A DNA stretch of 64,000 bases from Candidatus Multivoradales bacterium (GCA_965223855.1 CBDCXM010000009.1:3072001-3136000), one strand, 5' to 3'; counted from the first letter of the stretch, positions 28,717-62,059 are shown. Notes: generated by a model not told the origin, from the sequence alone. Numbers and translations: made by a program.

Positions 28717-28803
28717 GCCGGAGTGGCGGAATTGGCAGACGCGACGGGCTCAAAATCCGTTTCCCATTAGGGAGTGGGGGTTCGAGTCCCCCCTCCGGCA
28801 CCA
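28717..28803 (+). tRNA. tRNA-Leu (CAA)
   Basis: GCCGGAG acceptor stem, D-loop GGCGGAATTGGCAGACGC, anticodon loop CTCAAAA, long variable arm, GGTTCGAGTCC T-loop, encoded CCA. Confidence 0.96.
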
Positions 28804-46186: not shown

Positions 46187-47048
46187 CCGCCGGCCCGAGA
46201 TCTTGCGTGCCGCCCTTGCCGTCGGCTCCCTGCTGGCCGCAACGGGCCTTACGGGTTGTGGCGGACAGAAGGAGCCCGAAGTCGGCGAGCGTCCGACCCG
46301 GGCAGCTCAGGAGATCGCCGCTGCCAAGGCCGAGGCCGAGGCGACCGAGGCCGCAGACGCCGCTGAAGCTGCTGCGCCCCCGGCGGAGGAAGGCGAGAAG
46401 CCTGCGACGTTGGTGCTGCGGGAAGGTGAGCGCTTTCCGGCCGTCCGCGTCGAGGAACCGCCCGAGGAGGAACCTTCGCTTTGGGAGGCCTCCCAGGCCG
46501 AGCGGCGTCGCCGGGCAGAGTCGGGAACGTCGAAGATCGTCATTACCGACGAGAACCTGCAGGAATACTCGTCGAAGGGGCAGCTGACAGAGCTCATCAC
46601 GGAACCTCTGCCCGGAGAGAGCCTGGAGGCGGAGGTTGCGGAGGAGACGGAAGACCTCGAGACCTACTGGCGCGACCGGGTGCGCGACGCCCGTCTCAGC
46701 TGGCGCGCCGCCGCCGACAGAGTTGTCGAGCTCGAGAGCGAGGTCGCGCGCCTGCGCCATGAGTTCTACGCAGCGGTCGACGCCTTCTACCGCGACTCCG
46801 AAATCAAGCCGGCGTGGGACCGCGCAGCTCTCGAGCTGGAAAGGGCTCGCGCGTCGGTCGAGGAGCGGCGGCTCGAAGTGCAGCTCGTGCTCGAGGAGGG
46901 GGTGAGAGACGACGCCCTTCCCGGTTGGCTGCGCGAGGGTATCGAGTTCGAGCCGGAGGTACCGGACGAGCAGCGGCCGCAAGCCGGCGGCGAGCTCCCG
47001 ATCGTGGAGGCGATCGAGACGCCGATCGCCGAGGAGCCGCCGAAGTGA
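46173..47048 (+). CDS. Hypothetical lipoprotein
   Basis: Lipobox LTGC; acidic coiled coil; PGWLRE near the C-terminus. Confidence 0.7.
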   Translation: MDGADRRPEILRAALAVGSLLAATGLTGCGGQKEPEVGERPTRAAQEIAAAKAEAEATEAADAAEAAAPPAEEGEKPATLVLREGERFPAVRVEEPPEEEPSLWEASQAERRRRAESGTSKIVITDENLQEYSSKGQLTELITEPLPGESLEAEVAEETEDLETYWRDRVRDARLSWRAAADRVVELESEVARLRHEFYAAVDAFYRDSEIKPAWDRAALELERARASVEERRLEVQLVLEEGVRDDALPGWLREGIEFEPEVPDEQRPQAGGELPIVEAIETPIAEEPPK

Positions 47049-48436
47049 GCGGCACCGAAAACCCTGCCGCGCAGACTCCGCGCCGGTTCTTCGTCGAGAC
47101 CTGGGGCTGCCAGATGAACGAGCTCGACAGCCAGCGGATGGCGGGGCAGCTCATGCAGCAGGGGTTGCTGCCGACTCGCGAGGTCGGCGAGGCGGACGTG
47201 GTGCTGCTGAACTCCTGCAGCGTGCGCGACAAGGCGGAGCAGAAGGTCTACTCGCGGCTCGGTCAGTACCGCCTGCTCAAGCAGTCGCGGCCGGGGATGA
47301 TGATCGGCCTGTGCGGTTGCGTGGCTGAGCAGGAGGGGCAGCGCGCCCTCGACCGTGTGCCCGACCTCGACTTCGTGCTCGGCACTGCCCGCGTCGGCGA
47401 GCTGCGGGACGTACTGGCGCGACGGCGCGCGGGCGAGCGCCTCGTCGCTACCGGCTTTTCCGACACGCGCCACTACGAGATCGACGCGATCTCGCGCCAC
47501 GGCGAGTACAAGGGGATGGTGACGATCATCGAAGGATGCGACAAGAAGTGCACCTTCTGCATCGTGCCGCAGACCCGCGGGCCGGAAATCAGCCGCCCGA
47601 TGCGAGAGATCCTGCGCGAGGTCAGGCATCTGGTCGACTACGGCTTCCGTGAGATCGAGCTCCTCGGCCAGACCGTCAACCACTGGCGCCAGCCCGCCGG
47701 CGAGGAGGGGCACGGCGAGTGCGACTTTGCCGACCTGCTCGATGCGGTCGCACGGGTCGATGGGGTGGAGCGGCTGCGCTTCGTCACCTCCTACCCGCGT
47801 GACTTCAGCCAGCGGATGGTCGATCAGTTCGCACGGCACGAGAACCTGTGCCCCTACCTTCATCTGCCGGTGCAGTCGGGCTCCAACCGCATCCTGCGAC
47901 TCATGGCTCGGGGCTATACGGTGGAGGAGTATCGCGACCTCGTCGCGAGGCTGCGCGAGGCGCGACCCGATCTGGCCCTCTCCACCGATCTGATCGTCGG
48001 CTTTCCGGGGGAGACGGACGAGGACTTCGAGGCGACCCGCAGCCTGGTCGAGGAGACCCGGTTCGGCTCGTTCTTCGCCTTCAAGTACTCGCCGCGACCC
48101 GGCACAGCGGCGCCGAAGCTGCCCGATCCGGTCGACGACGTGACGGCGAGTCGCCGGCTGCAGGAACTCTTCGCCGTCCAGGAGCCGATCCAGCGCTCCC
48201 TCAACGAGGCGCTCGTCGGCAGCCGCCAACGGGTGCTCGTGACCGGCTGGGGCAAGGAGCCGGGAACGCAGGTCGGCCGCACCCCGTGCCACCGCGTGGT
48301 GCACTTCGCCGCCGCAGACCCCTCGGGAGCCGAGCCGGTGCGCACGGGCGAGTTGACCAACGTCGTGATCGAGTCGGCGCTGCCGCACTCGCTGCTCGGC
48401 CGGCTTGACCGTGTCGCGAAGGCACGCGCACAATAG
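47045..48436 (+). CDS. miaB: tRNA methylthiotransferase MiaB
   Basis: TWGCQMN, NSCSVR, GCDKKCTFC radical SAM motif, HLPVQSGS, TRAM domain. Confidence 0.96.
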   Translation: MSGTENPAAQTPRRFFVETWGCQMNELDSQRMAGQLMQQGLLPTREVGEADVVLLNSCSVRDKAEQKVYSRLGQYRLLKQSRPGMMIGLCGCVAEQEGQRALDRVPDLDFVLGTARVGELRDVLARRRAGERLVATGFSDTRHYEIDAISRHGEYKGMVTIIEGCDKKCTFCIVPQTRGPEISRPMREILREVRHLVDYGFREIELLGQTVNHWRQPAGEEGHGECDFADLLDAVARVDGVERLRFVTSYPRDFSQRMVDQFARHENLCPYLHLPVQSGSNRILRLMARGYTVEEYRDLVARLREARPDLALSTDLIVGFPGETDEDFEATRSLVEETRFGSFFAFKYSPRPGTAAPKLPDPVDDVTASRRLQELFAVQEPIQRSLNEALVGSRQRVLVTGWGKEPGTQVGRTPCHRVVHFAAADPSGAEPVRTGELTNVVIESALPHSLLGRLDRVAKARAQ

Positions 48437-48443
48437 GTCGGTC

Positions 48444-48941
48444 ATGGGAGACGCGCCGATCCGCATGGAGATCAAGGGTCTGATGCTAGACCCGAACTCC
48501 AACACGCCGATCGTGATCCTCCGCAACGAAGACGAGACCCTCTTCCTGCCGATCTGGATCGGGGTCTTCGAGGCCAATGCAATCGCGATGCAGCTCGAAG
48601 ACGCCAAGCCGGCGCGGCCGATGACCCACGATCTCTTCCACACGACCCTGAGCGAGGCGGGGCTCGCCCTCGAGCAGGTCCTGATCCGCGACCTGAAGGA
48701 CAACACGTTCTTCGCGACGTTGCGCCTGACCGGGGAAGGGGATCGCCGCCTGGAGATCGACGCACGGCCCAGCGACGCGCTCGCCCTTGCCCTGCGCTCC
48801 GAGGCCGAGGTGCTCGTGCTGCCTTCGGTGCTCGAAAAGGCGGAGGCGATCGAGCTCGTGCAGCAGATCGAGGGCGAGGACGAGCTCAAGAAGTGGCTGG
48901 CCGAGGTCGATCCCGACGATCTCGGCGAGTACCCGATGTAG
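48444..48941 (+). CDS. Bifunctional nuclease family (DUF151)
   Basis: LPIWIGVFEANAI, RPMTHDL, IDARPSDA. Confidence 0.92.
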   Translation: MGDAPIRMEIKGLMLDPNSNTPIVILRNEDETLFLPIWIGVFEANAIAMQLEDAKPARPMTHDLFHTTLSEAGLALEQVLIRDLKDNTFFATLRLTGEGDRRLEIDARPSDALALALRSEAEVLVLPSVLEKAEAIELVQQIEGEDELKKWLAEVDPDDLGEYPM

Positions 48942-48998: not shown

Positions 48999-49020
48999 CG
49001 ATGTCGGCGCGCCGACATCG
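48999..49020. promoter_or_regulatory. Perfect 22-bp palindrome upstream of parA; candidate non-canonical parS or operator
   Basis: CGATGTCGGCGCGCCGACATCG with 16-bp core TGTCGGCGCGCCGACA. Confidence 0.55.
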
Positions 49021-49045
49021 TCGCAGGGCCCTGTCGCGCGGTTTC

Positions 49046-49074
49046 TTGACCCCTCCGGGGGCATGTCCTACACT
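49046..49074 (+). promoter_or_regulatory. Sigma70 promoter of parAB
   Basis: TTGACC-N17-TACACT. Confidence 0.7.
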
Positions 49075-49103
49075 GGCGGCGCTCGAATGAGACCGCGCAC
49101 CGC

Positions 49104-49862
49104 ATGATCCTCGCCATCGCCAACCAGAAGGGCGGAGTCGGCAAGACGACGACGGCGATCAACGTCGCGGCGGCCATGGCCTCGAAGGGGCTCAAGACCC
49201 TGCTGATCGACCTCGATCCGCAGGCGAACAGCTCGATGACGTTCCTGCCGCCAGAGCAGGTAGGGAAGACCGTCTACGACGCGCTCTCCGACGACGCGAC
49301 GAGCCTCGAGGAGGTGACCTACCGGGTCAGCGACCTGCAGAGCCTTTGGGTGGCACCCTCGTCGATCGCGCTCGCCAAGATCGAGGCGAAGCTGATCGGC
49401 GAGTTCGACAGCTACTACCGGCTGCAAGACAAGCTGGGGCCGGTGCGGGGCGACTACGACTACATCGTCATCGACACGCCGCCGACGCTCGGCATCATCA
49501 CCGTCAACGCCCTCGTGGCATCGACGCACATTCTGATCCCGATCCAGGCGTCCTACTTCGCGCTCGAGGGGACCGACGACCTTCTGGAGACGATCGACAA
49601 GATCAAGGCTCGGGCGAATCCCGAGTTGCAGATCCTCGGCGCGGTGCTGACCCTGTTCGACAAGCGCACCAACCTTTCCAAGGACGTGCGTGAACAGGTG
49701 GAGGAGGTCTTCGGCGACAAGGTTTTCGACACCGCGATTTCGAGGAGCGTCCGGCTCGAAGAGAGCCCCGCCTACCGGGAGTCGATCTTCAGCTTCGCGC
49801 CCAAGTCGAGCGGAGCGTTCGAGTACTACAAGCTTTCCGAGGAGATTCTCAGCCGCGTCTAG
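49104..49862 (+). CDS. parA: ParA/Soj family ATPase
   Basis: ANQKGGVGKTTT, DLDPQAN, IDTPP, VRLEESP. Confidence 0.93.
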   Translation: MILAIANQKGGVGKTTTAINVAAAMASKGLKTLLIDLDPQANSSMTFLPPEQVGKTVYDALSDDATSLEEVTYRVSDLQSLWVAPSSIALAKIEAKLIGEFDSYYRLQDKLGPVRGDYDYIVIDTPPTLGIITVNALVASTHILIPIQASYFALEGTDDLLETIDKIKARANPELQILGAVLTLFDKRTNLSKDVREQVEEVFGDKVFDTAISRSVRLEESPAYRESIFSFAPKSSGAFEYYKLSEEILSRV

Positions 49863-49900
49863 CGGCCGTGACCGCCCTCCGGAAAGAGGGGGAAGCAACC

Positions 49901-50815
49901 ATGAGCGATTCGCGAGACGACCGCCGCGGCCTGCCGTCGCGACTGAAGATGCGGCACGACACTCACTTCGTCGAGGAGCTCGCCAGCCGCCACGTCGATC
50001 CGATCGGCCAGCGGGTCGACATCGGCAGAGTAGAGCCCGATCCCGACCAGCCGCGCAGCCGGATGGGGGAGCTGGACGACCTCGTCTCCTCGATCCGCGA
50101 GAAGGGGATCCTCGAGCCGATCCTGGTGCGCGAAGTGAGTGGGGGAGAGCCGGGCATCGACTACCGGATCATCTCGGGGGAGCGACGCTATCGCGCTGCG
50201 CTCGAGGCCGAGCTCACCGACCTGCCGGTGATCGTCCTCGACGTCGACCCCGACGAGGCGCTCGAGATCGCGCTGATCGAGAACCTCCAGCGCAAGGACC
50301 TCACGCCGTTCGAGGAGGCGCAAGGCTTCCACGCACTGGCCGAGCGACACCAGTACACCCATCAGGAGATCGCCTCGGCGGTCGGGCGCTCGCGCAGTCT
50401 CGTCTCCGAGACGCTGAAGTTGCTCGAAATGCCGGAAGACGTGCGGCGGATGGCGGAGCGGCACGAGGTTCTGTCGCGCTCGATGCTCCTCGAGATCCTC
50501 AAGGCCTCCGGCGGCGACGAGGAGGCGATGCTGCGGCTCATCGAGCAGGCGGCACACGGCACACTGCGGCGCGACGACGTTCGCGACGAGATCCGCAGCC
50601 GGAAGCCCCGCGCCAGCGCCCGCAGAAAGCCCTACACCTTCAAGTTCCGAGACCCGGAGAAGAGCTTCCACCTGGCGCTGTCGTTCCGCCGCAGCGAGGT
50701 CGAGCGGTCCGACCTGATCTCGGCCCTGGAGCAAATTCTCGGGGAGCTGCGCCGCGCCGAGGTGGACGATGTCGGCCCGGCAGCCTTCGGCGGGGAAGAG
50801 CGCGAGGAAGAGTAG
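49901..50815 (+). CDS. parB: ParB/Spo0J family partition protein
   Basis: PDQPR, SIREKGILEP, ISGERRYRA (CTPase), LIENLQRKDL, HTH. Confidence 0.92.
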   Translation: MSDSRDDRRGLPSRLKMRHDTHFVEELASRHVDPIGQRVDIGRVEPDPDQPRSRMGELDDLVSSIREKGILEPILVREVSGGEPGIDYRIISGERRYRAALEAELTDLPVIVLDVDPDEALEIALIENLQRKDLTPFEEAQGFHALAERHQYTHQEIASAVGRSRSLVSETLKLLEMPEDVRRMAERHEVLSRSMLLEILKASGGDEEAMLRLIEQAAHGTLRRDDVRDEIRSRKPRASARRKPYTFKFRDPEKSFHLALSFRRSEVERSDLISALEQILGELRRAEVDDVGPAAFGGEEREEE

Positions 50816-50897
50816 CGGCCGGCGCGGCATCCCCGCGTGGTCACGGTCCCGGCGCGCCAGGCTCGCGATCGTGCTCGCGGCCGCCCTGCTCGCCGCC

Positions 50898-51557
50898 ATG
50901 GCGGAACGAGGCTCGACCGAGAGCGGTCCCGAGATGCCCCCTCCTGAGATCGATCACCTCCTCTACGCCTGCCCCGACCTCGAGAGGGGGATGGACGAGA
51001 TCGAATCCCTACTCGGCGTCAGGCCGTTCCCGGGAGGCCGTCATTCTCGATACGGCACCCACAACGCCCTGGTGTCCCTGGGCAAGGGCGTCTACCTGGA
51101 AGTCATCGCACGCGACCCGGAACTCGAGGCTCCCGAACGAGGAGCGCTCGTAGAGGTCGAGGGCCCCTGCCGGCTTCTGACGTGGGCAGCGGGGACGGCG
51201 CACATCGAGTCGACAGCTGCGGCCGCGCAGCAGGCAGGTATCGGCCTGGGCAGCGTCGAAGAGGGGAGCCGGGAAAGGCCGGACGGCAGCCTCCTTCGCT
51301 GGCGGCTGACCGATCCCTACGCCATGCCCCTGGGCGGAGCCGTCCCGTTCCTCATCGACTGGGGAGACACGACGCACCCCTCGACCGTCGCGCCCCGGGC
51401 AGGGGAGCTGATCCGACTCGAGATCGGCCACCCCGCACCTGGGGAGGTCCGCAGAGCGCTTGCCGCCCTCAGCATCGAGATCGACGTGGTCGAGGAGCAG
51501 GAAACCCGCCTGTCCGCAACGATCTCCACAAGCAACGGCCCGGTGGCCCTCCGCTAG
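50898..51557 (+). CDS. Glyoxalase-like (VOC) protein
   Basis: IDHLLYA, GGRHSRYGTHNALV, YLEVIA, PFLIDW; start uncertain. Confidence 0.85.
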   Translation: MAERGSTESGPEMPPPEIDHLLYACPDLERGMDEIESLLGVRPFPGGRHSRYGTHNALVSLGKGVYLEVIARDPELEAPERGALVEVEGPCRLLTWAAGTAHIESTAAAAQQAGIGLGSVEEGSRERPDGSLLRWRLTDPYAMPLGGAVPFLIDWGDTTHPSTVAPRAGELIRLEIGHPAPGEVRRALAALSIEIDVVEEQETRLSATISTSNGPVALR

Positions 51558-51621
51558 GTTGCGGAAGCCGCGGCTCGTCAAACCTTCCTGAAGACGCAGC
51601 CTCTCCCTACTTGGACTCTCT

Positions 51622-52245
51622 GAACATTCACCCGGCACTCGCCGAGGTAGCACTCGTCGAGGTAGCCCGGCACGAACCAACACGAGCGGTGGTGACGACG
51701 ACCCGATGAGTGGCGACGGCGATGGTCGAGTTCCTCGAGGGAGAGGGCGCTGGAAAAGGGCGTGGAGAAGAGCTCCAGGTAAGCAGGGACCAACTCAACG
51801 GAAGGTGCGAGCACAGCAGTCCCACCTCTTCCAGGCCTACTTGAAGCCCTTCGCGTGGACCGAGTTCCAGGCCTCAGGGTCCTCCTCGGGGAGGCCCGAA
51901 CATTCACCTGGCACCTACGTAGCAGGCCTACTTGAAGCCCTTCGCCTGGACCAAGTCTCAGGCTTGGGGGGCCTCCTCGGGAGGCCCGTACATCCTCACC
52001 TGGCACCAGGCCCGAACATTCACCTGGCACCTAGCTAGCGGCGTGGAGAAGAGCTCCAGGTAAGGAGCCAACCGAAGGTGCCAGCACAGCAATCCCACCT
52101 CTTCTACGCCTACTTGAGGCCCTTCTCGTCGACCGAGCTCCACGCTTGAGGCGCCCCTCCTAGGGGAGGCCAGAACATTCACCTGGCACTTAGCGAAAGC
52201 AGAACATTCACCGGGCACCTAGCGAAAGGGCGCCTAGCGAGAGGC
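51622..52245. repeat. Non-coding repeat cluster: six copies of GAACATTCACCTGGCAC plus ~150-bp duplicated units (REP/MITE-like)
   Basis: 17-mer copies start at 51622, 51898, 51988 (variant), 52014, 52173 and 52202. Long units at 51759-51914, 51923-52006 (partial) and 52040-52189. Confidence 0.85.
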
Positions 52246-52267
52246 GGCTGCGGTCCCTTGCGGGTCT

Positions 52268-53008
52268 CTAGCTCGAGCTCTCGGGCAGGTAGTCGCCGAG
52301 GAGGTTCCATTCCATGCCGTTTCCCCAGCCTGCGCCGTGGTCGCTCTCGTACCTGCCGGGAGGGGTCGGCTGGACGTGGTGAGAGCCGAACGTGAGCAGG
52401 CTCAGGAGCCGACGAGGGCGAAGATGCCTGCTGGCCCAGGCAAGAGGAGAGTCTCCGTGGGCATCTCGCGCCTCCGGATCGGCGCCGGCATCGAGGAGCA
52501 GGCGAATCGTCTCTTCTTCGGCATAGGCGGCTGCGCGATGCAGCGGCGTCTCGCCGCAGGTTCGGACGTCCCGCATGAAGGCACCGGTCTCGACACCGGG
52601 AGTGGTTCGAGCGTCGACCCGCGCACCACGCTCGAGGAGCAGCCGCACGACACGACTGTAGTAAGGCCTTCCGGCCTTGCAGAGGGCGCTGTGCAGCGCC
52701 GTCTCGCCGGTGTCGGCTTCTGAACCGTTGACGTCGGCCCCCTGAAGGAGCAGGAAGTCACAGACCTTCCAGTGACCGAAGAACGCTGCGTGGCGCAGTT
52801 CCTGGTCCAGGTCGAGAACGGTCAGGTCGCCACCGGCCCGCAGGACCGCCTTGAGCGCCGTCACGTCGTCGTAGTACACGAACCACGACAAGGGGCCGTG
52901 AGGGAGTCCGTCCGACAGAGCCTCTCGCCAGTCGGGAAGATCGAGGAGGTCGAGGACGAGGTCGGTTCTGCCGCGGCGAATGCGATCGACGATGACGGAT
53001 CGGTCCAT
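52268..53008 (-). CDS. Ankyrin repeat protein
   Basis: GETALHSAL, GETPLHRAA, GDSPLAWA ankyrin motifs. Confidence 0.9.
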   Translation of the reverse strand: MDRSVIVDRIRRGRTDLVLDLLDLPDWREALSDGLPHGPLSWFVYYDDVTALKAVLRAGGDLTVLDLDQELRHAAFFGHWKVCDFLLLQGADVNGSEADTGETALHSALCKAGRPYYSRVVRLLLERGARVDARTTPGVETGAFMRDVRTCGETPLHRAAAYAEEETIRLLLDAGADPEARDAHGDSPLAWASRHLRPRRLLSLLTFGSHHVQPTPPGRYESDHGAGWGNGMEWNLLGDYLPESSS

Positions 53009-53091
53009 GAAGGAGAGAGTAGCGCAGCCCCTTTACCGCGGATTCCCTGACGCCCGCTCACGAACGCCTCGATCCGCCGTTCTCGATTTGA

Positions 53092-53119
53092 AGTTGACAT
53101 AATATATCTTATCAGACTC
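53092..53119 (-). other. dif-like XerCD recombination site
   Basis: Minus strand GAGTCTGATAA-GATATA-TTATGTCAACT in 11-6-11 layout (E. coli dif GGTGCGCATAA-TGTATA-TTATGTTAAAT); an AT-rich island in intergenic high-GC DNA. Confidence 0.85.
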
Positions 53120-53351
53120 CATCTGCGCGCACTCAGAATGGGTCCGGCGCGCCTCTCCGGCTCGCCGGCTCTCCAACCCCTATCGCTGGACGATCGGATC
53201 GAGCCCCGGACCGACACTCTCCCTCGTGCCATCTCCCCTTCGGAATCTGTCCCCGGCGGCTCGTAGGCTCTATGGAGCCGCGCCCGACGACGCTCACGGT
53301 GCGAGTCCCGTAACCCGCCTGTCGTCAGACACTTGAGCCGATGCCGCGAAC

Positions 53352-53367
53352 TGGCTCGTCCCTTGCT
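53352..53367 (+). promoter_or_regulatory. Sigma54 -24/-12 promoter
   Basis: TGGCTCGTCCCTTGCT (GG-N10-GC) upstream of an operon encoding a sigma54 activator. Confidence 0.65.
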
Positions 53368-53509
53368 CCAGCAAGGCACCCGAGCGAACACCGGGCGTGA
53401 CGACCATCCCGGCACGCTGCAGGACCGCACTCGGCCTTCCGCACACCCCTCATCAGGCCGAGACGCGGCCGGCACGCCTCGAACGACTTCCGACAGGAGC
53501 CTTCTCCCC

Positions 53510-54430
53510 ATGCCACGGCGACAGACCCCCTTCCTACCCTCGACCCTCCTCATCCTGCTGTGTCCCCTCCTGGCGCCGCTACCGGCGCTCGCGGGAGGCG
53601 CCTGGCTTCCGGCGCCCGGCGACGGGGAGTTCGCCGTCGGCTACAGCCGCAAGACCGCACATACTTCCTGGGACGATTCCGGCGACGGCTTCGTCAACAC
53701 CGGCCGCTTCGAGAACCACGACTTCCGCTACACGTACCTGTCGGGCGAGTTCGGCCTCAGTGAGCGCTGGGCGGCCCACTTCCTGATCACCCATCTCGAC
53801 GGCCGCGAGGGGCCCACCGGAGAGCTCGAACGCAACAGCGGCCTTTCCGACGCCTGGTTTGGAGTCAAGTACGCGCTCACCACGGGCGAGCTGCGCACAG
53901 CCCTCGACCTCACCCTGCGGACTGCCGAGTTCTACGACATCGACGGACCCTACTCCCGCGATCTCTTCGATGATGACGGCGAGTTTCTCGGCCACAGCCC
54001 TGAGTGGCGCGGCCTTCTCAAGGAGGATCTCACTCTCGAGTGGCAGGTCGGCCGCTCTCTGCGCCAGGGCCGGCAATGGTTCGGAGGCTCGATCGGCTAC
54101 ACCTACCGCACCGGTGCACCGGCCGACCAGATCCCTCTCTCCCTCGAAGGAGGCTGGTGGCACCCCTCGAGGAAGGTCGCCGGCAAGCTCGCCGTCCTGG
54201 CGGTGAGGAGCCTCGGCAACGACTCGGAGCGTCGCGAGGGCGATCGCTTCGGCTCGCGGCCCGGATTCAACTTCAACGACGCCAGCATGGCCAGGCTGGG
54301 TGGCTCGATCCTGGTGCCGCTCGGAAGCAGTACTTCCTGGACGGTCGAAGCCGGGTATAACGTCTGGTTATGGGGCCGCTCCGCACGCCAGTACGAGGAA
54401 CCCTTCTTCGCCGTGAGTCGCCGGTTCTGA
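53510..54430 (+). CDS. Hypothetical outer-membrane beta-barrel protein
   Basis: Signal peptide (ALA-GGAW), alternating aromatic strands, C-terminal Phe (FFAVSRRF). Confidence 0.7.
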   Translation: MPRRQTPFLPSTLLILLCPLLAPLPALAGGAWLPAPGDGEFAVGYSRKTAHTSWDDSGDGFVNTGRFENHDFRYTYLSGEFGLSERWAAHFLITHLDGREGPTGELERNSGLSDAWFGVKYALTTGELRTALDLTLRTAEFYDIDGPYSRDLFDDDGEFLGHSPEWRGLLKEDLTLEWQVGRSLRQGRQWFGGSIGYTYRTGAPADQIPLSLEGGWWHPSRKVAGKLAVLAVRSLGNDSERREGDRFGSRPGFNFNDASMARLGGSILVPLGSSTSWTVEAGYNVWLWGRSARQYEEPFFAVSRRF

Positions 54431-56064
54431 GCCCACGCACGTCCGGCGGCCCGTGGAGCGCTTCGGTGGCGCTCCTTCTCATCGTCGGTCTTCTCGTTCT
54501 CAACGGCGCGGCAATCCGAGAAATCGTCAGTGCACGCGACCGGGCGCGCGCGCTCGCGCAACTCGAGCTCGACCTGCGGGTCGAAGAGCGCTCGCAGGCG
54601 CTGCGTGCCACTCTGGCAGGCCTGCTCCGGGACCTCGCTCAGCTCGCCGACTCCCCACCCCTTGCGGCTGTGCCGGAGCGACTGACGGGCGACGACCCCC
54701 TCGCCAGCCGCTGGGCACGACTCGACGCCGAGGGAGCCTTGCTCCTGTTCGCTCAGCCCCGCCCGGCGGTGAAGGCTCTGGCGCTGGTGGACGAGAGAGG
54801 AGCCGCGGTTCTCGGCGTCCACCGGCGCGGAGACACCCTCCTGTCCGGCCCCTCACTGCGGCCGGGGCCCTCAGCGCTGATCGAAGGGGACGGTCCAGCT
54901 CTCCCGGCGGCTTCGTGGCTCGCCGCCTCCGTTCCGCTCCCCTCCTCCGCTGCGCGCCTCGAAATCCGCATCGACCCGGACCTCGCCCTTCCCGAGGAAC
55001 CGGCGGGCTACGAGCTCGCCGTGTCACCGATCGGCGGCCAGCCTGCGGAATCCACAGGCGAGACCGCCCTTGCAGAAGGCACGGCCGCTCCAATCGAAGC
55101 GAGCCGCAACATCCCCATCGAGGGCTGGCAGCCGGCCTCCGAGCTTCAGATCGTCGGTCGCCAGCAACCGTCCGGCGGTCAGCTGACGACAATGGAACTC
55201 GCCTCCCGGTATCGCCGCACGGTGCTGTGGAACCTGGTCGTCATCGCCGCCCTCTCCGCGACCGTCCTGCTGGCGCTCATCCAGCTCCGCCGGCGCGCCC
55301 GCGCCGAGGCCGCCGCAGCCCACGAGCGGCGGGTCCGGGACCTGGAGCGAGGCCTCGTGCACAAAGAGCGGCTGGCGAGCGTCGGCCGGTTCGCGGCCGG
55401 CATCGCGCACGAGGTCAACAACCCGCTCACCGGATCGTCAAACCACCTGAGCCTGCTGGAAAGCCGCCTCGACGACAGCGACATCGAAGCCGCCCGCAGC
55501 GAGGTCGGCAGGGTGCGCGAGGGGCTCGAGCGCGCCGCCGGCATCGTGCGCCGGACGCTGACCTACGCCGATTCCGGCGCCGAGGTGCGCACCCCGGTAA
55601 GCCTGGTGGAGTCGGCGGAGGAGGCGATCCGCTTTCTGCGCCCCCGCTTCCCGGAGATCCGCTTCGAGCTCGGCTCCCCCGCCGCGCCGATCGTCGTCGC
55701 CAACCCCGTCGCCCTCGGCCAGGTGTTTCTCAATCTGCTGACCAACGCCTGTGAGGTTCAGCGGGGTACCGGAGAGGTGGCGATCCGCCTCGACCTGTGC
55801 GATAGCGTCGCGAGCGTGACGATAGAAGATTCCGGTCCCGGCCTTTCGGACGAAGCGCTGGAGCGGCTCTTCGAGCCGTTCTTCTCCACCCGCGGCTCGA
55901 CCGGCCTCGGGTTGTCGATCTGCCACGGAATCGTCACCGAGCACGGCGGCACGCTTCGAGCGGCGAATCGCGCCGGTGGCGGGGCTCGCTTCACCATCGA
56001 GTTGCCCGCCGCCGAACCCTCCGGGCCAACAGCTGCCGTCTCCTCCACCGGGCTTGCAGGATGA
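54427..56064 (+). CDS. Membrane sensor histidine kinase (NtrB-like)
   Basis: Two TMs; GIAHEVNNPL H-box, NLLTNA, DSGPG, FEPFFSTR, GLGL; start uncertain. Confidence 0.92.
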   Translation: MSPRTSGGPWSASVALLLIVGLLVLNGAAIREIVSARDRARALAQLELDLRVEERSQALRATLAGLLRDLAQLADSPPLAAVPERLTGDDPLASRWARLDAEGALLLFAQPRPAVKALALVDERGAAVLGVHRRGDTLLSGPSLRPGPSALIEGDGPALPAASWLAASVPLPSSAARLEIRIDPDLALPEEPAGYELAVSPIGGQPAESTGETALAEGTAAPIEASRNIPIEGWQPASELQIVGRQQPSGGQLTTMELASRYRRTVLWNLVVIAALSATVLLALIQLRRRARAEAAAAHERRVRDLERGLVHKERLASVGRFAAGIAHEVNNPLTGSSNHLSLLESRLDDSDIEAARSEVGRVREGLERAAGIVRRTLTYADSGAEVRTPVSLVESAEEAIRFLRPRFPEIRFELGSPAAPIVVANPVALGQVFLNLLTNACEVQRGTGEVAIRLDLCDSVASVTIEDSGPGLSDEALERLFEPFFSTRGSTGLGLSICHGIVTEHGGTLRAANRAGGGARFTIELPAAEPSGPTAAVSSTGLAG

Positions 56065-57431
56065 CAGCCGCCTCCGGCAGTCCGCCGGCGCGGGCGACCA
56101 TTCTGGTCGTCGACGACGAGCCGTACGTCCGCGACTCGTTGGCAGCTCTCCTCGAGAGTCGAGGTTTCCGCACCCGTAGCGCCGGGTCGGTCTCCGAGGC
56201 GCTCGAGGACGGTCGGCTGGCCGGAGTCGATCTGGTGTTGAGCGACCTCAGCATGCCGGAGGCCGGAGGGCTCGAGCTGGTTCGTGCTCTCGCCAGGGCG
56301 GGAGGGCCACCGATCGTCATCCTCACCGCCCACGGGACGGTCGGCTCCGCCGTCGATTGCATGCGAGCCGGTGCCGTCGACTATCTCCTCAAGCCGACCG
56401 ATCCCGACGAACTGACCCTGAAGCTCGACCGGGTCCTGACTCGGACCGAGGAGCACCGCGAGCTGGAGTACCTACGCTCCCGGACCGAGTCCGCCGACGC
56501 ACGGCGCCGTCTCGTCGGCAGTTCGAAGGCCTGGACGAAGGCGGTCGGGCTCGCCCGTACCGCAGCCCCCGCCGACACCTCTGTCCTCCTTCTCGGCGAG
56601 TCCGGGACCGGCAAGGAGATGCTCGCCGGGTTGCTCCACCGCGAGAGCCCGCGGGCGGAGCGACCGTTCGTCGCCGTCAACTGCGCAGCGATTCCCGACG
56701 AGCTGTTCGAGAGCGAGTTCTTCGGCCATCGCAAGGGCGCCTTCACGGGCGCGGTCAGCGATCGCGACGGCCGCTTCCGGATCGCTCACGGCGGGACGCT
56801 CTTCCTCGACGAGGTCGACTCCCTCTCCCCCACCGCCCAGGCGAAGGTGTTGCGGGTGCTCGAGGAGGGAACCTTCCAGAGGGTCGGGGATTCCGAGTCG
56901 ACGCTCGTCGACGTTCGCGTCGTCTGCGCCACCAACTCCGACCTCAGAAGTCGCGTCGCCGAGAAGCTGTTCCGCGAGGACCTCTACTACCGCATCGCGG
57001 TGTTCGAGATCATGGTGCCGGCGCTCCGCGATCGGCCCGGCGACATTGCGGAGCTCGCCGCACACTTCGCCCGCACTCTGGCGCCAAGGCTCGGCAAGGC
57101 GGTCGCACCGCCGGACGAGGAGACCCTGGAGCTGCTGGAGGCCTACTCCTGGCCGGGCAACGTCCGCGAACTGCGCAACGTCATCGAGCGGGCCTTGCTC
57201 CTCGAACAGGGCGAGCGACTGCGGCCCGAGAGCCTCCCTTCGCTGGTCGTCGAAGGCGCCGCCGAGGGGCGCCCCGGCACGCTGCGCGAGGCGCTGGCGG
57301 CGGAAGAGCGGCGGCTCATTCTCCGCAGCCTCGAGGAGGCCGACGGGGTGAAGCGCGAGGCGGCGAGGAGGCTCGGAATCGATGAGCGGAACATGGGCTA
57401 CTACCTGCGCAAGCACGGGCTGCGCAAGTGA
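56061..57431 (+). CDS. Sigma54-dependent response regulator (NtrC family)
   Basis: REC domain (VDDE, SDLSMP), GESGTGKE, GAFTGA, WPGNVREL, HTH. Confidence 0.95.
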   Translation: MTAASGSPPARATILVVDDEPYVRDSLAALLESRGFRTRSAGSVSEALEDGRLAGVDLVLSDLSMPEAGGLELVRALARAGGPPIVILTAHGTVGSAVDCMRAGAVDYLLKPTDPDELTLKLDRVLTRTEEHRELEYLRSRTESADARRRLVGSSKAWTKAVGLARTAAPADTSVLLLGESGTGKEMLAGLLHRESPRAERPFVAVNCAAIPDELFESEFFGHRKGAFTGAVSDRDGRFRIAHGGTLFLDEVDSLSPTAQAKVLRVLEEGTFQRVGDSESTLVDVRVVCATNSDLRSRVAEKLFREDLYYRIAVFEIMVPALRDRPGDIAELAAHFARTLAPRLGKAVAPPDEETLELLEAYSWPGNVRELRNVIERALLLEQGERLRPESLPSLVVEGAAEGRPGTLREALAAEERRLILRSLEEADGVKREAARRLGIDERNMGYYLRKHGLRK

Positions 57432-59173
57432 AGCCGATCGCGCCCGGGGCGGCGGCGCAGGAAACCGCAGGCGACAGGAAGCCGACCTCGACAGCACTCT
57501 TCGTGGCCGGCTGCCTGACGCTGTGTCTTCTGGGCGTCGCCTGCGACGAGCGCAGGACCGCCCGGTCCGCCCGGGCCGCCCTTGGGGCGCCCGAAGCCTC
57601 TGACGAAGCGACGGCGGCCGGTGCCGCCTTCGACGTCCTGAGCCCGCCCCCCGGGATCGACTTCTCTCACGACAACGGAGCGACTGTCGACCGCCTCCTG
57701 CCGGAAACGATGGGGTCCGGCGTCGCCGTCTTCGACTACGACGGCGACGGCCGCTACGACCTCTTCTTCGTCAACGGCTCGCCGCAGAGCGCCGCCGCCC
57801 TCTACCGCAACCTCGGCGACGGCCGCTTCGAGGACGTGACGTCGCGTGCCGACGCCGGTGTCCGCCTGACGGGCATGGGCGTCGCAGCGGCGGACGTCGA
57901 TGGGGACGGCGCCGTCGATCTCTTCGTTTCGGGGGTCGGTGGGGATCTGCTGCTGAGCAACCGCGGCGACGGCACGTTCCGCTCCGAGCCCGGCTGGATC
58001 AGTGCCCTGGAGCCCGGTTTCTCCTCGAGCGCCGCCTTCCTCGACGTCGATGCCGACGGCCGGCTCGACCTGTTCGTCGGTCGCTATGTGACGTGGTCGC
58101 CGGAGAGCGACGTCGCCTGCCGTCCGGACGGCGAGCACCGTACGTACTGCACCCCCGAGGTCTATCCCGGAGCAAGCAACCGCCTGCTGCGCAATCGTGG
58201 AGACCGCCGCGGCTTCGCCGCCGCGACCGCCGCCTCCGGGCTCGACCTCTCCGAAGGCAAGACGCTCGGGGTCGTCCCGCTCGACTTCGATCGCGACGGG
58301 CTCGTTGACCTCGCGGTCGGCAACGACACGGTGCGCAACTTCCTCTTCCGCAACCTGGGCGGAACGTTCGAAGAGGTCGGAATGGAGCGGGGCATCGCCC
58401 TGAGCGACTCGGGCGCACCGCGCGGCGCGATGGGGATCGACGCCGGCGACCTCTCGAGTCGCGGAGACGTCGACCTCGTGATCGGCAATTTCGCTCTGGA
58501 GATGGCGGGTCTTTACCGCAACCGCGGCAGCGGTTTCTACAGCGACGGGGCCGCCCTGCTCGGGCTCGGCATCCCGACCCTCCAGACGCTCGCCTTCGGC
58601 ACGGTCGCTACCGACCTCGACCTCGACGGCCGATGCGACATCGTCTTCGCCAACGGCCACATCGAGCCGGACATCGCCGTCGTCCGACCCGGTCAGAGCT
58701 ATGCACAGCCGCTCCAGGTCTTCCGCCAGCGCGGCGACGGCACCGGCTTCGATCTGCTCGACTCGGGCGAGCTGGCAGCCGGCTACGTCGGCCGCGGACT
58801 CGCCACCGGCGATCTGGACGGCGACGGAGACGCCGACCTCGTCCTGACCCAGAACGGAGGCCGACCGGTGATCCTCGCCAATCGTCTTGCCGAACGACCC
58901 GGCCTGACGGTGCGCCCGGTCGCCGTCCGCTCGAGCCCCGCCTTCGGCACGGCCGTCTCGGCCGTCAACGCCCGCACGCCGTCGGGCTTCGAACAGGCAC
59001 TCGTCGCCGGCGGTTCCTATCTGTCGGCCTCGGCGCCGGAGCTCATCTTCGCTCCGTCGGCTTCCCAGGAGCCGACGACGCTCGACGTCAGATGGCCCGA
59101 CGGCCGCCGGTCTCGACTGGCGGCGGCTGCGGCGGGCGGGCACACTCTCGTCCTGCCGAGCCCTGGGGGCTGA
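57428..59173 (+). CDS. CRTAC1-family lipoprotein (FG-GAP repeats plus ASPIC/UnbV)
   Basis: Lipobox VAC, PETMGSG, repeated DxDGDGxxDL, GSYLS...VRWPDG. Confidence 0.9.
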   Translation: MKPIAPGAAAQETAGDRKPTSTALFVAGCLTLCLLGVACDERRTARSARAALGAPEASDEATAAGAAFDVLSPPPGIDFSHDNGATVDRLLPETMGSGVAVFDYDGDGRYDLFFVNGSPQSAAALYRNLGDGRFEDVTSRADAGVRLTGMGVAAADVDGDGAVDLFVSGVGGDLLLSNRGDGTFRSEPGWISALEPGFSSSAAFLDVDADGRLDLFVGRYVTWSPESDVACRPDGEHRTYCTPEVYPGASNRLLRNRGDRRGFAAATAASGLDLSEGKTLGVVPLDFDRDGLVDLAVGNDTVRNFLFRNLGGTFEEVGMERGIALSDSGAPRGAMGIDAGDLSSRGDVDLVIGNFALEMAGLYRNRGSGFYSDGAALLGLGIPTLQTLAFGTVATDLDLDGRCDIVFANGHIEPDIAVVRPGQSYAQPLQVFRQRGDGTGFDLLDSGELAAGYVGRGLATGDLDGDGDADLVLTQNGGRPVILANRLAERPGLTVRPVAVRSSPAFGTAVSAVNARTPSGFEQALVAGGSYLSASAPELIFAPSASQEPTTLDVRWPDGRRSRLAAAAAGGHTLVLPSPGG

Positions 59174-59213
59174 CGGCTCCCGCCCGCAAACAGGAGTTCG
59201 CTACCGCAGCTCT

Positions 59214-59831
59214 CTACTCCGAGACGGCGAGACTCCCGATCCAGGCGTCAAACGCTTCGGCGTTCGCGGTCACGGTCCCCTCCGGTCCGGTGAGCTTGAA
59301 GAACCAGTTCGAGTCCGGGCCCTGCGCGATCGCCCCCAACAGCATGTAGCCCGGGAACGGGCCGGACGGCCCGGCACCCATCCGCATGCCGCCGTCGTAG
59401 GTCCCACGGGTTTCCACCCTCAGAATCCCGAGCCCGCTCACCTCGAGGTCACGCACCGACGAGTCGCTGCTCGGGCCGCCGTCGGCGCCGGTGAACTGCT
59501 GCAACCACCGGTTCACGTTCGCCTCGACATCTCCCCCCTGGCCGGGGCCGAAATAGAAGACGACCGCCTCGGCATCGGCATCGCCCTCGACACCAGGCAC
59601 CCGGAATTGAGCACGCCTCATCGAGGACGAGGGACGCTCCTCCACCCAGCCGTCCGGGGCGGTCCATTGCAGCCGGCCGCCCGGGCCTGCGGTCGACGTC
59701 GCCGGCGGCACCTCGGACACCGGCGACCCGGCGTTCTCTGACGACGACTCCTTCGCGCACGCCGCTCCGAAGAGCGTCCAGGCGACTACGACAACGGCAA
59801 GACCGAACCCGTCCTTCGAGTGTTTGCTCAT
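59214..59831 (-). CDS. Hypothetical lipoprotein
   Basis: Lipobox AAC; SSMRRAQF, GGDVEANVNRW, WFFKLTGP. Confidence 0.75.
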   Translation of the reverse strand: MSKHSKDGFGLAVVVVAWTLFGAACAKESSSENAGSPVSEVPPATSTAGPGGRLQWTAPDGWVEERPSSSMRRAQFRVPGVEGDADAEAVVFYFGPGQGGDVEANVNRWLQQFTGADGGPSSDSSVRDLEVSGLGILRVETRGTYDGGMRMGAGPSGPFPGYMLLGAIAQGPDSNWFFKLTGPEGTVTANAEAFDAWIGSLAVSE

Positions 59832-59869
59832 CGGTCGAGGCTACCGCACCCGACCGGTTCCGGCTGCGG

Positions 59870-62059
59870 TCAGTAGACGACGACCGGGATCGTACCGACG
59901 GCCGGTGAAGAGCCGCCGGCACCCGTAGCGACAACCTCCAGCGTGTAGTCGCCGGGGGAGATCGATCCCAGGAGCAGTGTGGCCGCCAGGCGCTGCGCTC
60001 CACCGAGCGTCCCCTGGCCGCCCAGGCTGACCGACGCGTCCAACGGCTCTCCGCCCTCCGCCGGCACGAAGCGCGCCGAGAGCTCCGGCTCCTCGCTATC
60101 GAATCCGTGGGCGAGCAGCATCAGCGGAACCGCCTGACCGGCCGGCAGGATCGGCGCGGCCGCCGGCGCCAGATTGCGCCCCGACGAGGTCTTCAACGGT
60201 TCGCGCACTTCACGCCCCTGTTGGCTCGACTCCTTCCCCATCAGCCAGAGCCCCTGCGGCTCGATGAAGAGCGGCGGCGAAACGATCGGTGCGCCGGCTG
60301 CGAAATCGGGTACGACCACCGTCGCCGCCGCCAGCCCCGACGCCCCGGTGACGGCATTGCGCGCCAGCGCCCGGATCTCGTAGCGGCCGGCGCCGAGCTC
60401 GAAGTGACCGGCGAACTTGAAGCCCCGGGCATCGAGCGCCGACCCGACCCGCGGCAGGTCGAGCAGGACCCCCTCGGAGAAGTAGTCGGTGGCCGTGCCG
60501 CTCGCCGAGATGGCGTAGGCGAAGATCTCGACCGGGAGACGATCGCCGGCGTGGTCCTGCCGCAGCGCAAAGCCGTCGACCTCGACCCAGGTCGACACGT
60601 ACGCCCTACCCCCCTCGCCTCGGAACGGCACGGCGAGGACGGAGACCGGGATCTCGCCACCGACCTCGCCACCCAGCACGCGCTCCGCCGTGGCGAACTG
60701 ACGCTCCTCGGGCGAGAGGTCGGCGTACGAGCGCGGCGCGTAGTAGCCCGGGCGATGCGACACGCGAGCCCCCTTCCCCGCCCCCTTCAGCCGCACCTCG
60801 ATCGGGTGGTAGCTGCCATCGAAGGCGAGCCCCTCGGGCGCCACGCTCAGCAGGTAGGTGACGCTGGTGCGCTCGAGCATCTCGCCCATCGCCACCGACA
60901 GGTCGTTGTAGTTGCGATAGAACTCGCCGCCGGTCTGGTCGGCCATGATGAAGAGGCCGTCCTGCCCGGCCGAGCGGTCCTGGGCGGTCCCTCCGGCCAC
61001 CGTGCCCGCCCGCAACCCGGCGATATCGACCGCCTGGATGGCGCAGTCGCAGCGCCGGAACCGCTCGAGCATGTCGAACACCCCATCCTGAGCCTGCGAG
61101 TTGCCGAAGCGCTCGTCGGAGTCGACCCGGTGTACCTCCCCGAACTGCGCGTCGAGCGTCATCTCCCGCACCCGCTCCTGATCCTCGGTGCCGAGCATCA
61201 CCGAGCTGTCGAACCCTTCCGACAGATAGACGACGTGCTTGCGGCCGCTCGTCGCCGCCAGGTATCCGGCGAGTTCCTCGAGCGAGCCGCTGAGGTTGAG
61301 AATCTGGTTGATCTGCTGGGTGCGCTCGTTGCGCGCGGCGAAACCGCTCAGGTCGCGAATGATCTCGAGGAAGATGCCGTCGCGGTTCGCGCCTTCGCCT
61401 CCTGCCGGACCGAACGTCGCCCCTCCCCCCTGGCCGATCAGATCCTCGAGCCCCGGCTGGATCACCAGCTTGAGTGGGTCGCCCTTGCGAGCGACGGGGT
61501 CGAGCAGGCCGAGCGAGTCGATGGCGGCGCCGAGCTGCAGACGATCGCTGGTGAAGCCGAGCACCAGGTCGGCACCGCGCGTTTCCGCGTAGGTCGCCAC
61601 GGCGACGAAGTCGGTCGCGTGCAACCCCTCGGCGACGAAGTCGTGTGCCGCCGCGCGCGCCTTGACGACCGAACCCGGATTCGAGAAGGAAAGATCGAAC
61701 AGCAGCAGGAAGTGCCGCCGCGCCGCCACCGGCACGCCGGGACCGACCGCAGTTTCCACCGACTCCTCGACCTCGGCCAGATCGACGACCTCGAAGCCGA
61801 CGATCGGCAGCTCCTTCTTCCCCTCGACGACGCGGAAGTCCTCCGCATCCAGCCCCCGGACCGGGTCGCCGTCCCTGACGACGTGGACGGGGATTTCGAC
61901 CTGAAGCACGTCGGCTCGCGAGCCGAACGGACGATCGGCTCCCCGCTCCTGGGCGCCGACGGGCATTCCGGAGCCGACGCCTGCCGCAAGCAGCAGGAGG
62001 GCGGCTGCCCGGACAGGAATCCTCGAGGCGGTTCCGCTGTATTCTCTCTTCGTGCGCAC
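59870..62059 (-). CDS. VWA domain-containing secreted protein (acidobacterial VWFA-related)
   Basis: PVRGLDAEDF, FDLSFS, GRKHVVYLSEG, ADQTGG, HRPGYY; start uncertain. Confidence 0.85.
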   Translation of the reverse strand: MRTKREYSGTASRIPVRAAALLLLAAGVGSGMPVGAQERGADRPFGSRADVLQVEIPVHVVRDGDPVRGLDAEDFRVVEGKKELPIVGFEVVDLAEVEESVETAVGPGVPVAARRHFLLLFDLSFSNPGSVVKARAAAHDFVAEGLHATDFVAVATYAETRGADLVLGFTSDRLQLGAAIDSLGLLDPVARKGDPLKLVIQPGLEDLIGQGGGATFGPAGGEGANRDGIFLEIIRDLSGFAARNERTQQINQILNLSGSLEELAGYLAATSGRKHVVYLSEGFDSSVMLGTEDQERVREMTLDAQFGEVHRVDSDERFGNSQAQDGVFDMLERFRRCDCAIQAVDIAGLRAGTVAGGTAQDRSAGQDGLFIMADQTGGEFYRNYNDLSVAMGEMLERTSVTYLLSVAPEGLAFDGSYHPIEVRLKGAGKGARVSHRPGYYAPRSYADLSPEERQFATAERVLGGEVGGEIPVSVLAVPFRGEGGRAYVSTWVEVDGFALRQDHAGDRLPVEIFAYAISASGTATDYFSEGVLLDLPRVGSALDARGFKFAGHFELGAGRYEIRALARNAVTGASGLAAATVVVPDFAAGAPIVSPPLFIEPQGLWLMGKESSQQGREVREPLKTSSGRNLAPAAAPILPAGQAVPLMLLAHGFDSEEPELSARFVPAEGGEPLDASVSLGGQGTLGGAQRLAATLLLGSISPGDYTLEVVATGAGGSSPAVGTIPVVVY

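Follow-up and report, generated by a model that had tools for sequence, protein, structure and literature searches.

A parAB operon beside dif in acidobacteria, with a candidate non-canonical parS: a possible system for partition of the terminus

This paper concerns a parA-parB operon in a 64,000-nucleotide stretch of DNA from Candidatus Multivoradales bacterium (GCA_965223855.1, CBDCXM010000009.1:3072001-3136000), which we refer to as the window and from whose first nucleotide all positions are counted. A palindrome that is our candidate for its parS precedes the operon, and a dif site follows it. We think it fairly probable that this is the conserved ParABS system of a Thermoanaerobaculia-like acidobacterium, with the palindrome as its centromere, placed at the terminus beside dif and with a role in handling of the terminus. 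The operon is the conserved chromosomal ParABS of its lineage and not an add-on, it has been kept together with dif over long evolutionary time in two clades, and in this genome it is at the very end of one replichore and is transcribed toward dif. An earlier note, made from the sequence of this stretch, had drawn attention to the combination.

The parAB operon and its relatives

The parA gene (49104-49862, plus strand) encodes a Soj-type ATPase of 252 aa with a deviant Walker A motif, KGGVGKTT, at residues 9-16 and with matches to Pfam AAA_31 (E = 7e-56), CbiA and ParA. The parB gene (49901-50815, plus strand) encodes a CTPase-type protein of 304 aa, in which the boxes for binding of cytidine triphosphate (CTP), ISGERRYRAA and IENLQRKDL, are both present and are invariant in an alignment of 19 sequences, and the operon with an intact CTPase motif that the earlier note described is indeed there. 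ParB matches Pfam ParB_N and the helix-turn-helix (HTH) family HTH_ParB (PF17762, E = 2.5e-14), and scores 150 bits with the ParB/Spo0J domain model TIGR00180, for which the cut-off is 58. It falls below the cut-off of the Noc model TIGR04285 (139.8 bits against 315) and below those of the models for partition proteins of plasmids and integrative and conjugative elements (RepB, KorB, PRTRC ParB), with 50.6 bits against 201.5 for TIGR03454, 97.4 against 278.6 for TIGR03734 and 48.6 against 640 for PRK13832. The nearest solved structures are 1VZ0 (E = 2e-35) and 6T1F (E = 1.5e-31). A sigma-70-like promoter for the operon is present at 49046-49074 on the plus strand (TTGACC, 17 nt, TACACT); this is a match to the consensus only, with one site found and 0.0 expected in shuffled sequence.

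For comparison a profile of 19 ParB members was run against genome contigs, and we took the best 80 of more than 585 relatives, one locus per assembly. All are Acidobacteriota-type loci, with ParB 43-63% and ParA 58-77% identical to the proteins of the window, and the comparison covers the stretches around these loci, 1.37 Mb in total. A FastTree tree of the 81 ParB proteins has three groups, which we name after classes that appear in the titles of the records: clade 1 is Thermoanaerobaculia-like and includes 24 loci and the window, clade 2 is Blastocatellia-like with 16 loci, and clade 3 is Vicinamibacteria-like with 40. Eight of the assemblies (those of L006, L024, L033, L038, L039, L044, L059 and L064) are titled Polyangiaceae, Heliomicrobium, Heliobacteriaceae, Bifidobacterium, Bifidobacteriaceae or Acidimicrobiia; they are probably mislabelled, since the ParB tree, the synteny and the palindrome put all of them among the Acidobacteriota-type loci.

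The gene order miaB-BFN-parA-parB is conserved. In the window miaB, for a tRNA methylthiotransferase, is at 46814-48436 on the plus strand (TIGR01574, 441 bits against a cut-off of 355) and is followed on the same strand by a gene with a BFN/DUF151 bifunctional-nuclease domain at 48405-48941 (Pfam BFN_dom, E = 6e-38), which is directly 5' of parA. Upstream miaB is found in 70 of the 80 loci, and the BFN gene is directly 5' of parA and on the same strand in 72, with seven of the other eight having no upstream sequence. The position of the operon among core genes, as given in the earlier note for miaB and DUF151, is thus borne out by domain matches and by synteny in relatives. The suggestion in the same note that this is a second ParAB finds no support; it is the conserved and core-gene-embedded ParAB of at least three acidobacterial classes. 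The BFN gene comes always after miaB, in all three clades, and the stable link of BFN with parA suggests a functional tie to partition or to processing of the terminus.

The palindrome

The perfect palindrome covers 22 bp at 48999-49020, CGATGTCGGCGCGCCGACATCG, with the 16-bp core TGTCGGCGCGCCGACA at 49002-49017, and its 3' end is 26 bp before the -35 of the promoter. Its presence just 5' of the -35, as reported in the earlier note, holds, with the correction that it extends further than stated there. The core is unique in the window, other matches being found only at 3 mismatches and within chance expectation. It is the longest palindrome without a spacer in the window. Of 100 first-order Markov simulations three gave arms of 11 or more, a frequency that makes it no more than moderately unusual on its own; its significance rests on its conservation in the relatives.

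That conservation is extensive. The sequence TGTCGGCNNGCCGACA is present in 73 of the 81 sources (72 of the 80 loci, and the window), in parAB or within a few kb of it, and sites with perfect arms, defined as TGTCGGC-NN-GCCGACA, number 90 across the 81 sources against about 0.005 by chance on a uniform-base estimate. Eight sources have no perfect-arm site, and among these L011, L026 and L028 have a copy with one mismatch, L049 has none, and L007, L016, L017 and L077 cover too little upstream sequence.

The position of the palindrome depends on the clade, being 5' of parA in clade 1 and inside parB and/or 5' of parA in clade 3. In clade 1 there is a perfect-arm copy 58-180 bp 5' of parA in 20 of the 21 loci that cover the region, and the 21st has a copy with one mismatch. 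Clade 3 has a copy with TG at the centre within the parB reading frame (codon 172 of the match), and 34 of its 40 loci carry it in exact form, although the ParB proteins of this clade average only 66% identity. The six codons of the in-gene palindrome have a third-position entropy of 0.29-0.72 bits, whereas 109 other codons with conserved amino acids average 1.09, and this low entropy points to selection on the DNA itself. Four of the six exceptions in clade 3 have one or two perfect-armed copies with CG at the centre 5' of parA, L028 has only its one-mismatch copy, also 5' of parA, and the sixth is L049. Clade 2 copies are found inside parB, 5-6 kb upstream and elsewhere, with four in 20 kb in L069.

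The pattern resembles that of canonical parS in other phyla, in that a 16-mer is tied to parAB, is sometimes inside parB and is present in one to several copies. It is not the pattern of a promoter operator or of a terminator. The earlier note proposed that the operon has a centromere sequence of its own, and the palindrome does behave as would a lineage-specific parS, tied to parAB in most loci with varied positions and copy numbers. Judged on sequence, we consider it quite likely that the centromere is this palindrome.

Canonical parS, TGTTNCACGTGAAACA, which the earlier note had not seen, has no match in the window at up to 3 mismatches. Over the 1.37 Mb of loci there are 6 matches at up to 2 mismatches. 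Two copies with one mismatch lie 5' of miaB in the Blastocatellia-like L031 (6415-6430) and L037 (6970-6985), both of which also have the acidobacterial palindrome inside parB; these near-canonical sites may be accidental, may be relics or may point to a second specificity. Weak or near matches to canonical parS are few, and are in Blastocatellia-like loci. Half-sites of the palindrome are scattered in coding DNA with no cluster near parAB. We found no publication that contains the 14-bp core of the palindrome.

A changed recognition helix in ParB

The HTH of the window ParB aligns with the DNA-binding domains of solved ParB proteins, and its recognition helix is changed. In the solved proteins of Thermus, Caulobacter and Myxococcus the helix reads GK(S/A/E)RSxVANxLRLL, whereas in all 81 acidobacterial ParBs it is G(K/R)SR(T/S)x(V/I)(T/S/A)E(S/T/A)L(S/A/K)L; the window has GRSRSLVSETLKLL, with VSETLKLL in place of VANxLRLL. 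All 81 have Glu in the position of the Asn N178 of Caulobacter; the Arg that corresponds to R173 is retained. According to Jalal et al. (2020, PMC7383237) N178 touches parS and is conserved in ParB and Noc alike. The canonical GHAR element (G201, R204) is replaced in acidobacterial ParBs by S-(R/K)-S. A residue-to-base recognition code for this second contact element was considered and dropped: two alignments differ there by one to two residues, and we therefore claim no base-by-base code. The occurrence of an altered DNA-reading surface in the same lineage as an altered palindrome is the signature expected of co-evolution, which is not proof of binding.

The ParB of the window and of its closest relatives (proteins P0002-P0016) also has a C-terminal extension, encoded at 50780-50815 in the window, which is variable and has a conserved acidic terminus, EEE (EEG in one); it is missing from more distant members of the family. 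It may be a tail for binding of a partner.

The dif site and the terminus

The dif site is on the minus strand at 53092-53119, GAGTCTGATAAGATATATTATGTCAACT, with two 11-bp arms and a 6-bp spacer, and lies within an AT-rich gap. On a position matrix made from 47 sites in relatives it scores 49 bits, the only other listed match in the window (2.7 bits) being the same site on the opposite strand, and the core ATAA-N6-TTATGTNAA occurs once in the window against 0.03 expected. The consensus of the relatives, GAGTCyGATAA-N6-TTATGTTAACT, and the site in the window both agree with the predictions of Kono et al. (2011) for Ellin345 and Solibacter (supplementary file 2, PMC3025954). The main text of that paper, in the part available, has no mention of parB or of genes that flank dif.

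There is a dif site 3' of parB in 60 of the 77 informative loci, a number that excludes three loci with less than 2.5 kb downstream and no site, and in 51 of the 60 it is no more than 500 bp from the parB stop codon. In clade 1 all 23 informative loci have it; the gaps range over 15-1099 bp with the median at 65 bp, and 21 do not exceed 500 bp. In clade 3 it is present in 35 of the 40 loci, the median being 195 bp, and 30 of these gaps are likewise no longer than 500 bp. It is found in only two of the 14 informative loci of clade 2. The distance from parAB to dif in orthologues, put forward in the earlier note as a check, has therefore given a strongly positive answer. The orientation of dif relative to parB varies among loci. 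Measured from centre to centre, the median distance from dif to the nearest palindrome is 1771 bp for clade 1 and 530 bp for clade 3, with 4.1 kb in the window. On present sequences the parAB-dif arrangement appears to be the ancestral state of the Thermoanaerobaculia-like and Vicinamibacteria-like clades at least.

With regard to the terminus, the evidence is in the polarity of short words. Words of 7 and 8 nt were ranked on 46 loci with dif, the window being held out. GGGGGAG is oriented toward dif by 121:19 to its left and 102:14 to its right, and CGGGGGAG by 57:8 and 60:2; GCGGGGGA is also strongly polar toward dif, and GGGNAGGG less so. Among the 7-mers with z of at least 4 on both sides 19 are convergent and one is co-oriented. 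In the held-out window GGGGGAG has 18 plus and 2 minus copies to the left of 53.1 kb, and 1 plus and 4 minus to the right (Fisher p = 0.0055). The polarity tracks the side of dif and not the strand of the genes, as judged with a crude gene caller: to the right of dif CGGGGGAG gives 2:31 for genes on the plus strand and 1:33 for those on the minus strand, and to the left 16:2 for genes on the minus strand. Six clade 3 loci with no dif nearby served as a negative control, and in these the plus strand is favoured on both sides of parB, by 51:19 to the left and 61:9 to the right, so that the polarity does not change. The words converge over at least 10 kb on each side of dif in the loci and over 53 kb in the window, and we regard all four as candidate FtsK-orienting sequences for Acidobacteriota.

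GC skew was too weak and noisy to place the terminus within the window by itself and was usable once aggregated over loci, when it is +0.010 to the left of dif and -0.012 to the right, with left greater than right in 38 of 48 loci. A single one-mismatch match to the DnaA box was found in the 64 kb, with no cluster, which argues against an oriC in the window, and dnaA, xerC/D and ftsK were not among the genes scanned there. The ParB of the window is on a contig of 3,226,005 bp. In two records described as chromosomes the locus is at 35% and 37% of the length, and in a contig of 2.25 Mb at 51%; these figures are uninformative by themselves, as they depend on where each record starts. By the positions of Kono et al. 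(2011, supplementary file 2) the dif sites predicted in two complete acidobacterial genomes are at 46-48% of the chromosome.

Since the polar words converge on it dif is a real marker of the terminus. The dif-like site at 53092 of the earlier note can be accepted as a genuine dif, and the site beside parAB is very probably that of the chromosome, located at its terminus.

Insertions around dif in this genome

The distance of 2.3 kb between parAB and dif given in the earlier note is correct for the window (2276 bp from parB) and is not the typical layout, as it is the largest gap of its clade and comes from an insertion. It thus understates the ancestral proximity. Between parB and dif are a glyoxalase-like gene (50769-51557, plus strand; Pfam Glyoxalase_3, E = 5e-39), about 700 bp of non-coding nested direct repeats (51560-52260), and an ankyrin-repeat gene that abuts dif (52268-53008, minus strand; Pfam Ank, E = 1.5e-20). 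Neither gene has a counterpart in any of the 80 loci. The repeats comprise 83-nt units in three copies, 37-nt units in four, and five copies of GAACATTCACCNGGCAC, a sequence absent from the rest of the window, and have no match in Rfam.

On the other side, fused lptF/lptG starts 68-473 bp beyond dif in the clade 1 relatives sampled (L001, L002, L006 and L011), and in the window it is at 61905-63998 (plus strand; Pfam LptF_LptG, E = 3e-120), separated from dif by about 8.8 kb (53120-61904). This segment has one open reading frame of no assigned family, a histidine kinase, a sigma-54 activator, an FG-GAP/ASPIC protein and two uncharacterised minus-strand genes. Comparison with the relatives indicates lineage-specific insertion of about 2.3 kb to the left of dif and about 8.8 kb to the right, and either side of dif seems to be a point of entry for new genes.

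Alternative explanations

Several observations weigh against the reading that we prefer. The 64 kb contain the palindrome only once, beside a promoter, so that here it could act mainly as an operator. The 52 non-coding copies have flanks that are symmetric at positions 9-12 from the centre in 60, 48, 54 and 48% of cases, against about 25% by chance, and the symmetric flanks differ in sequence between loci, with perfect palindromes reaching 28-30 bp. Binding of ParB alone does not explain this symmetry, which could reflect formation of a hairpin or cruciform, a mutational process or quasi-palindrome correction. The link of ParB to the palindrome depends on their co-occurrence and on the changed helix, and the mapping of the GHAR element, the second DNA contact, shifts by the one to two residues mentioned above. 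No dif was found in the available sequence of 12 of the 14 informative clade 2 loci and 5 of the 40 clade 3 loci, so the adjacency of parB and dif is not obligatory. GC skew within the window is noisy and is negative over 1-30 kb, although positive values would be expected there with the terminus on the right, a point of little weight. The genome of the window is outside the 80 loci, of which the closest is 63% identical in ParB, the counts are of related loci and not of independent events, and there may be further copies of the palindrome close to the origin, or another ParB.

The chief rival is that the sites used in segregation, with the same palindrome or another, are near oriC, that parAB is merely encoded beside dif with the local palindrome serving in autoregulation or termination, and that the adjacency is an inherited order without function. 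The single copy 26 bp from a -35 fits a regulatory site, the flank symmetry is compatible with a hairpin, and several lineages have lost the adjacency and yet keep parAB. However the clade 3 site is inside parB, away from the promoter, and is under constraint at the level of DNA, clade 2 has up to four copies over 20 kb, and a search for an intrinsic terminator or similar site at the palindrome gave none. In two clades, moreover, parB and dif have stayed tens of bp apart while ParB diverged to 43-63% identity with that of the window, although both sides of dif accept insertions. On balance we think this explanation rather unlikely.

We give still less weight to a second ParABS, dedicated to the terminus, that would exist beside a canonical origin-proximal one in the same genome. 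A non-canonical parS and a location at the terminus would suit such a system, and ParB paralogues with new specificity are known, as described for Noc (PMC7383237). But this is the only type of ParB among the best 80 of more than 585 relatives, from 80 assemblies of three or more classes and in the same core-gene context, no assembly gave two loci among those 80, and there is no other parA or parB in the 64-kb window. In a ParB protein search with 7671 matches (E <= 1e-10), the top of the best 120 listed were 58-73% identical and all named sources among the matches listed were Acidobacteriota or Thermoanaerobaculia, so this ParB looks like the main copy of the lineage, and a second system is improbable.

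Least likely by far is a mobile or plasmid-derived module that carries parAB and has the dif-like site as its Xer-type site of attachment or resolution. Plasmids often do pair partition with multimer resolution, and the cargo between parB and dif is variable in the window and in a few loci. Nevertheless there is one dif site per locus, and a second that would mark a Xer-dependent element around the 2.3-kb insert was looked for in the window and not found. Core genes flank the site, with miaB and ptsI to its left and lptFG to its right, polar words converge on it over at least 10 kb on either side and over 53 kb in the window, and the sequence matches the predicted dif of two complete acidobacterial genomes (Kono et al., 2011).

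A proposed mechanism

If the conserved ParABS does act at the terminus, its ParB with the diverged recognition helix would read the palindrome, and dimers would load there as CTP-gated clamps that slide across the neighbouring kilobases, including dif. Because the clamps would slide over the region that includes dif, the partition complex would assemble on the terminus and not on the origin. ParA would then position or separate that complex, and/or ParB would load SMC there, and segregation of the terminus would be coupled to resolution of dimers by FtsK/XerCD at division. We infer binding, spreading over dif and the role in terminus handling from the conservation described above.

A stronger form can be put forward only tentatively. 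In Thermoanaerobaculia-like and Vicinamibacteria-like bacteria the palindrome may be the sole chromosomal centromere, located at the terminus; almost every locus with both the palindrome and dif has them 0.35-2.9 kb apart (more in the window, as given above). The ParB-CTP complex would cover dif, the centromere would be copied last, and separation by ParA and any loading of SMC would start at the terminus. Were this so, the order of segregation would be post-replicative and tied directly to dimer resolution by FtsK/XerCD and to division, which reverses the origin-first rule of all model bacteria. We found no publication on a ParABS located at the terminus, or on linkage of parB and dif, in Acidobacteria, and the matching passages of the review PMC7022226 have nothing on it.

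Other features of the window

The remaining genes of the window are for core metabolism and the envelope, and include dnaB, priA, accA, lptC/A/B, rpoN, hprK and ptsI, with the fused lptFG. A tRNA-Leu(CAA) gene at 28717-28803 is the only Rfam match in the whole window. GC skew is mostly negative over 1-30 kb and positive over 30-48 kb, the shift being at about 30000 by the tRNA-Leu gene, and the polarity of GGGGGAG does not change there.

Relation to known systems

ParABS, dif and words like the FtsK-orienting polar sequences (KOPS) are known kinds of element; what is new is the specificity of the site, the variant helix and above all the location. The acidobacterial system shares with the canonical ones (B. 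subtilis Soj/Spo0J, Caulobacter crescentus ParAB and Thermus thermophilus Spo0J) the parA-parB operon, the Walker-type ParA, a ParB with CTPase N-domain (GERRxRA, ENLQR), HTH and C-terminal region, and a 16-bp palindromic site with TGT and ACA ends beside or inside parB. It differs in the inner 10 bp of the site, which in the window are CGGCG and CGCCG on the two sides of the centre, and in the helix, with TE or SE and S, A or K where the canonical proteins have AN and R. It differs also in that canonical loci are proximal to the origin, whereas this one is proximal to the terminus, with dif at a distance of 2.3 kb, convergence of polar words on dif and no cluster of DnaA boxes in the window.

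Noc sites are scattered and avoid the terminus. Noc and its binding site (NBS) in Firmicutes are nevertheless a useful parallel, as there a few changes in the DNA-binding domain of ParB redirect it to another 16-bp palindrome (PMC7383237). The window ParB is distinct from Noc in its low score on TIGR04285 and in being paired with parA.

The dif/XerCD/FtsK system with its KOPS is matched in the 28-bp site, the ATAA-N6-TTAT centre, the TTATGTnAAC arm, the single copy and the convergent G-rich words. The acidobacterial dif is different in being tied to parB, and in the sampled clade 1 relatives also to lptFG; we know of no report of conserved dif-flanking genes in other phyla. MatP/matS of enterobacteria is an analogy of function only, being also a site-specific DNA-binding protein that acts on the terminus around dif and is linked to division, but of an unrelated family, with many matS sites over hundreds of kb and no ATPase partner.

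Significance

In textbook models of segregation ParB-parS marks the origin region, which is duplicated and separated first and is the site at which SMC is loaded. Here a whole branch of an abundant and little-studied phylum of soil and sediment keeps its partition operon and candidate centromere against dif. The 16-bp site and the helix variant (N to E) extend the range of ParB specificity and could give an orthogonal ParB/parS pair for labelling of DNA loci, and the parB-dif pair is a simple landmark for the terminus in fragmented acidobacterial assemblies. If the centromere does act at the terminus, these bacteria would offer a natural test of whether origin-first segregation is a necessity or a habit, and also of how spreading of ParB relates to FtsK/XerCD and of where SMC is loaded.

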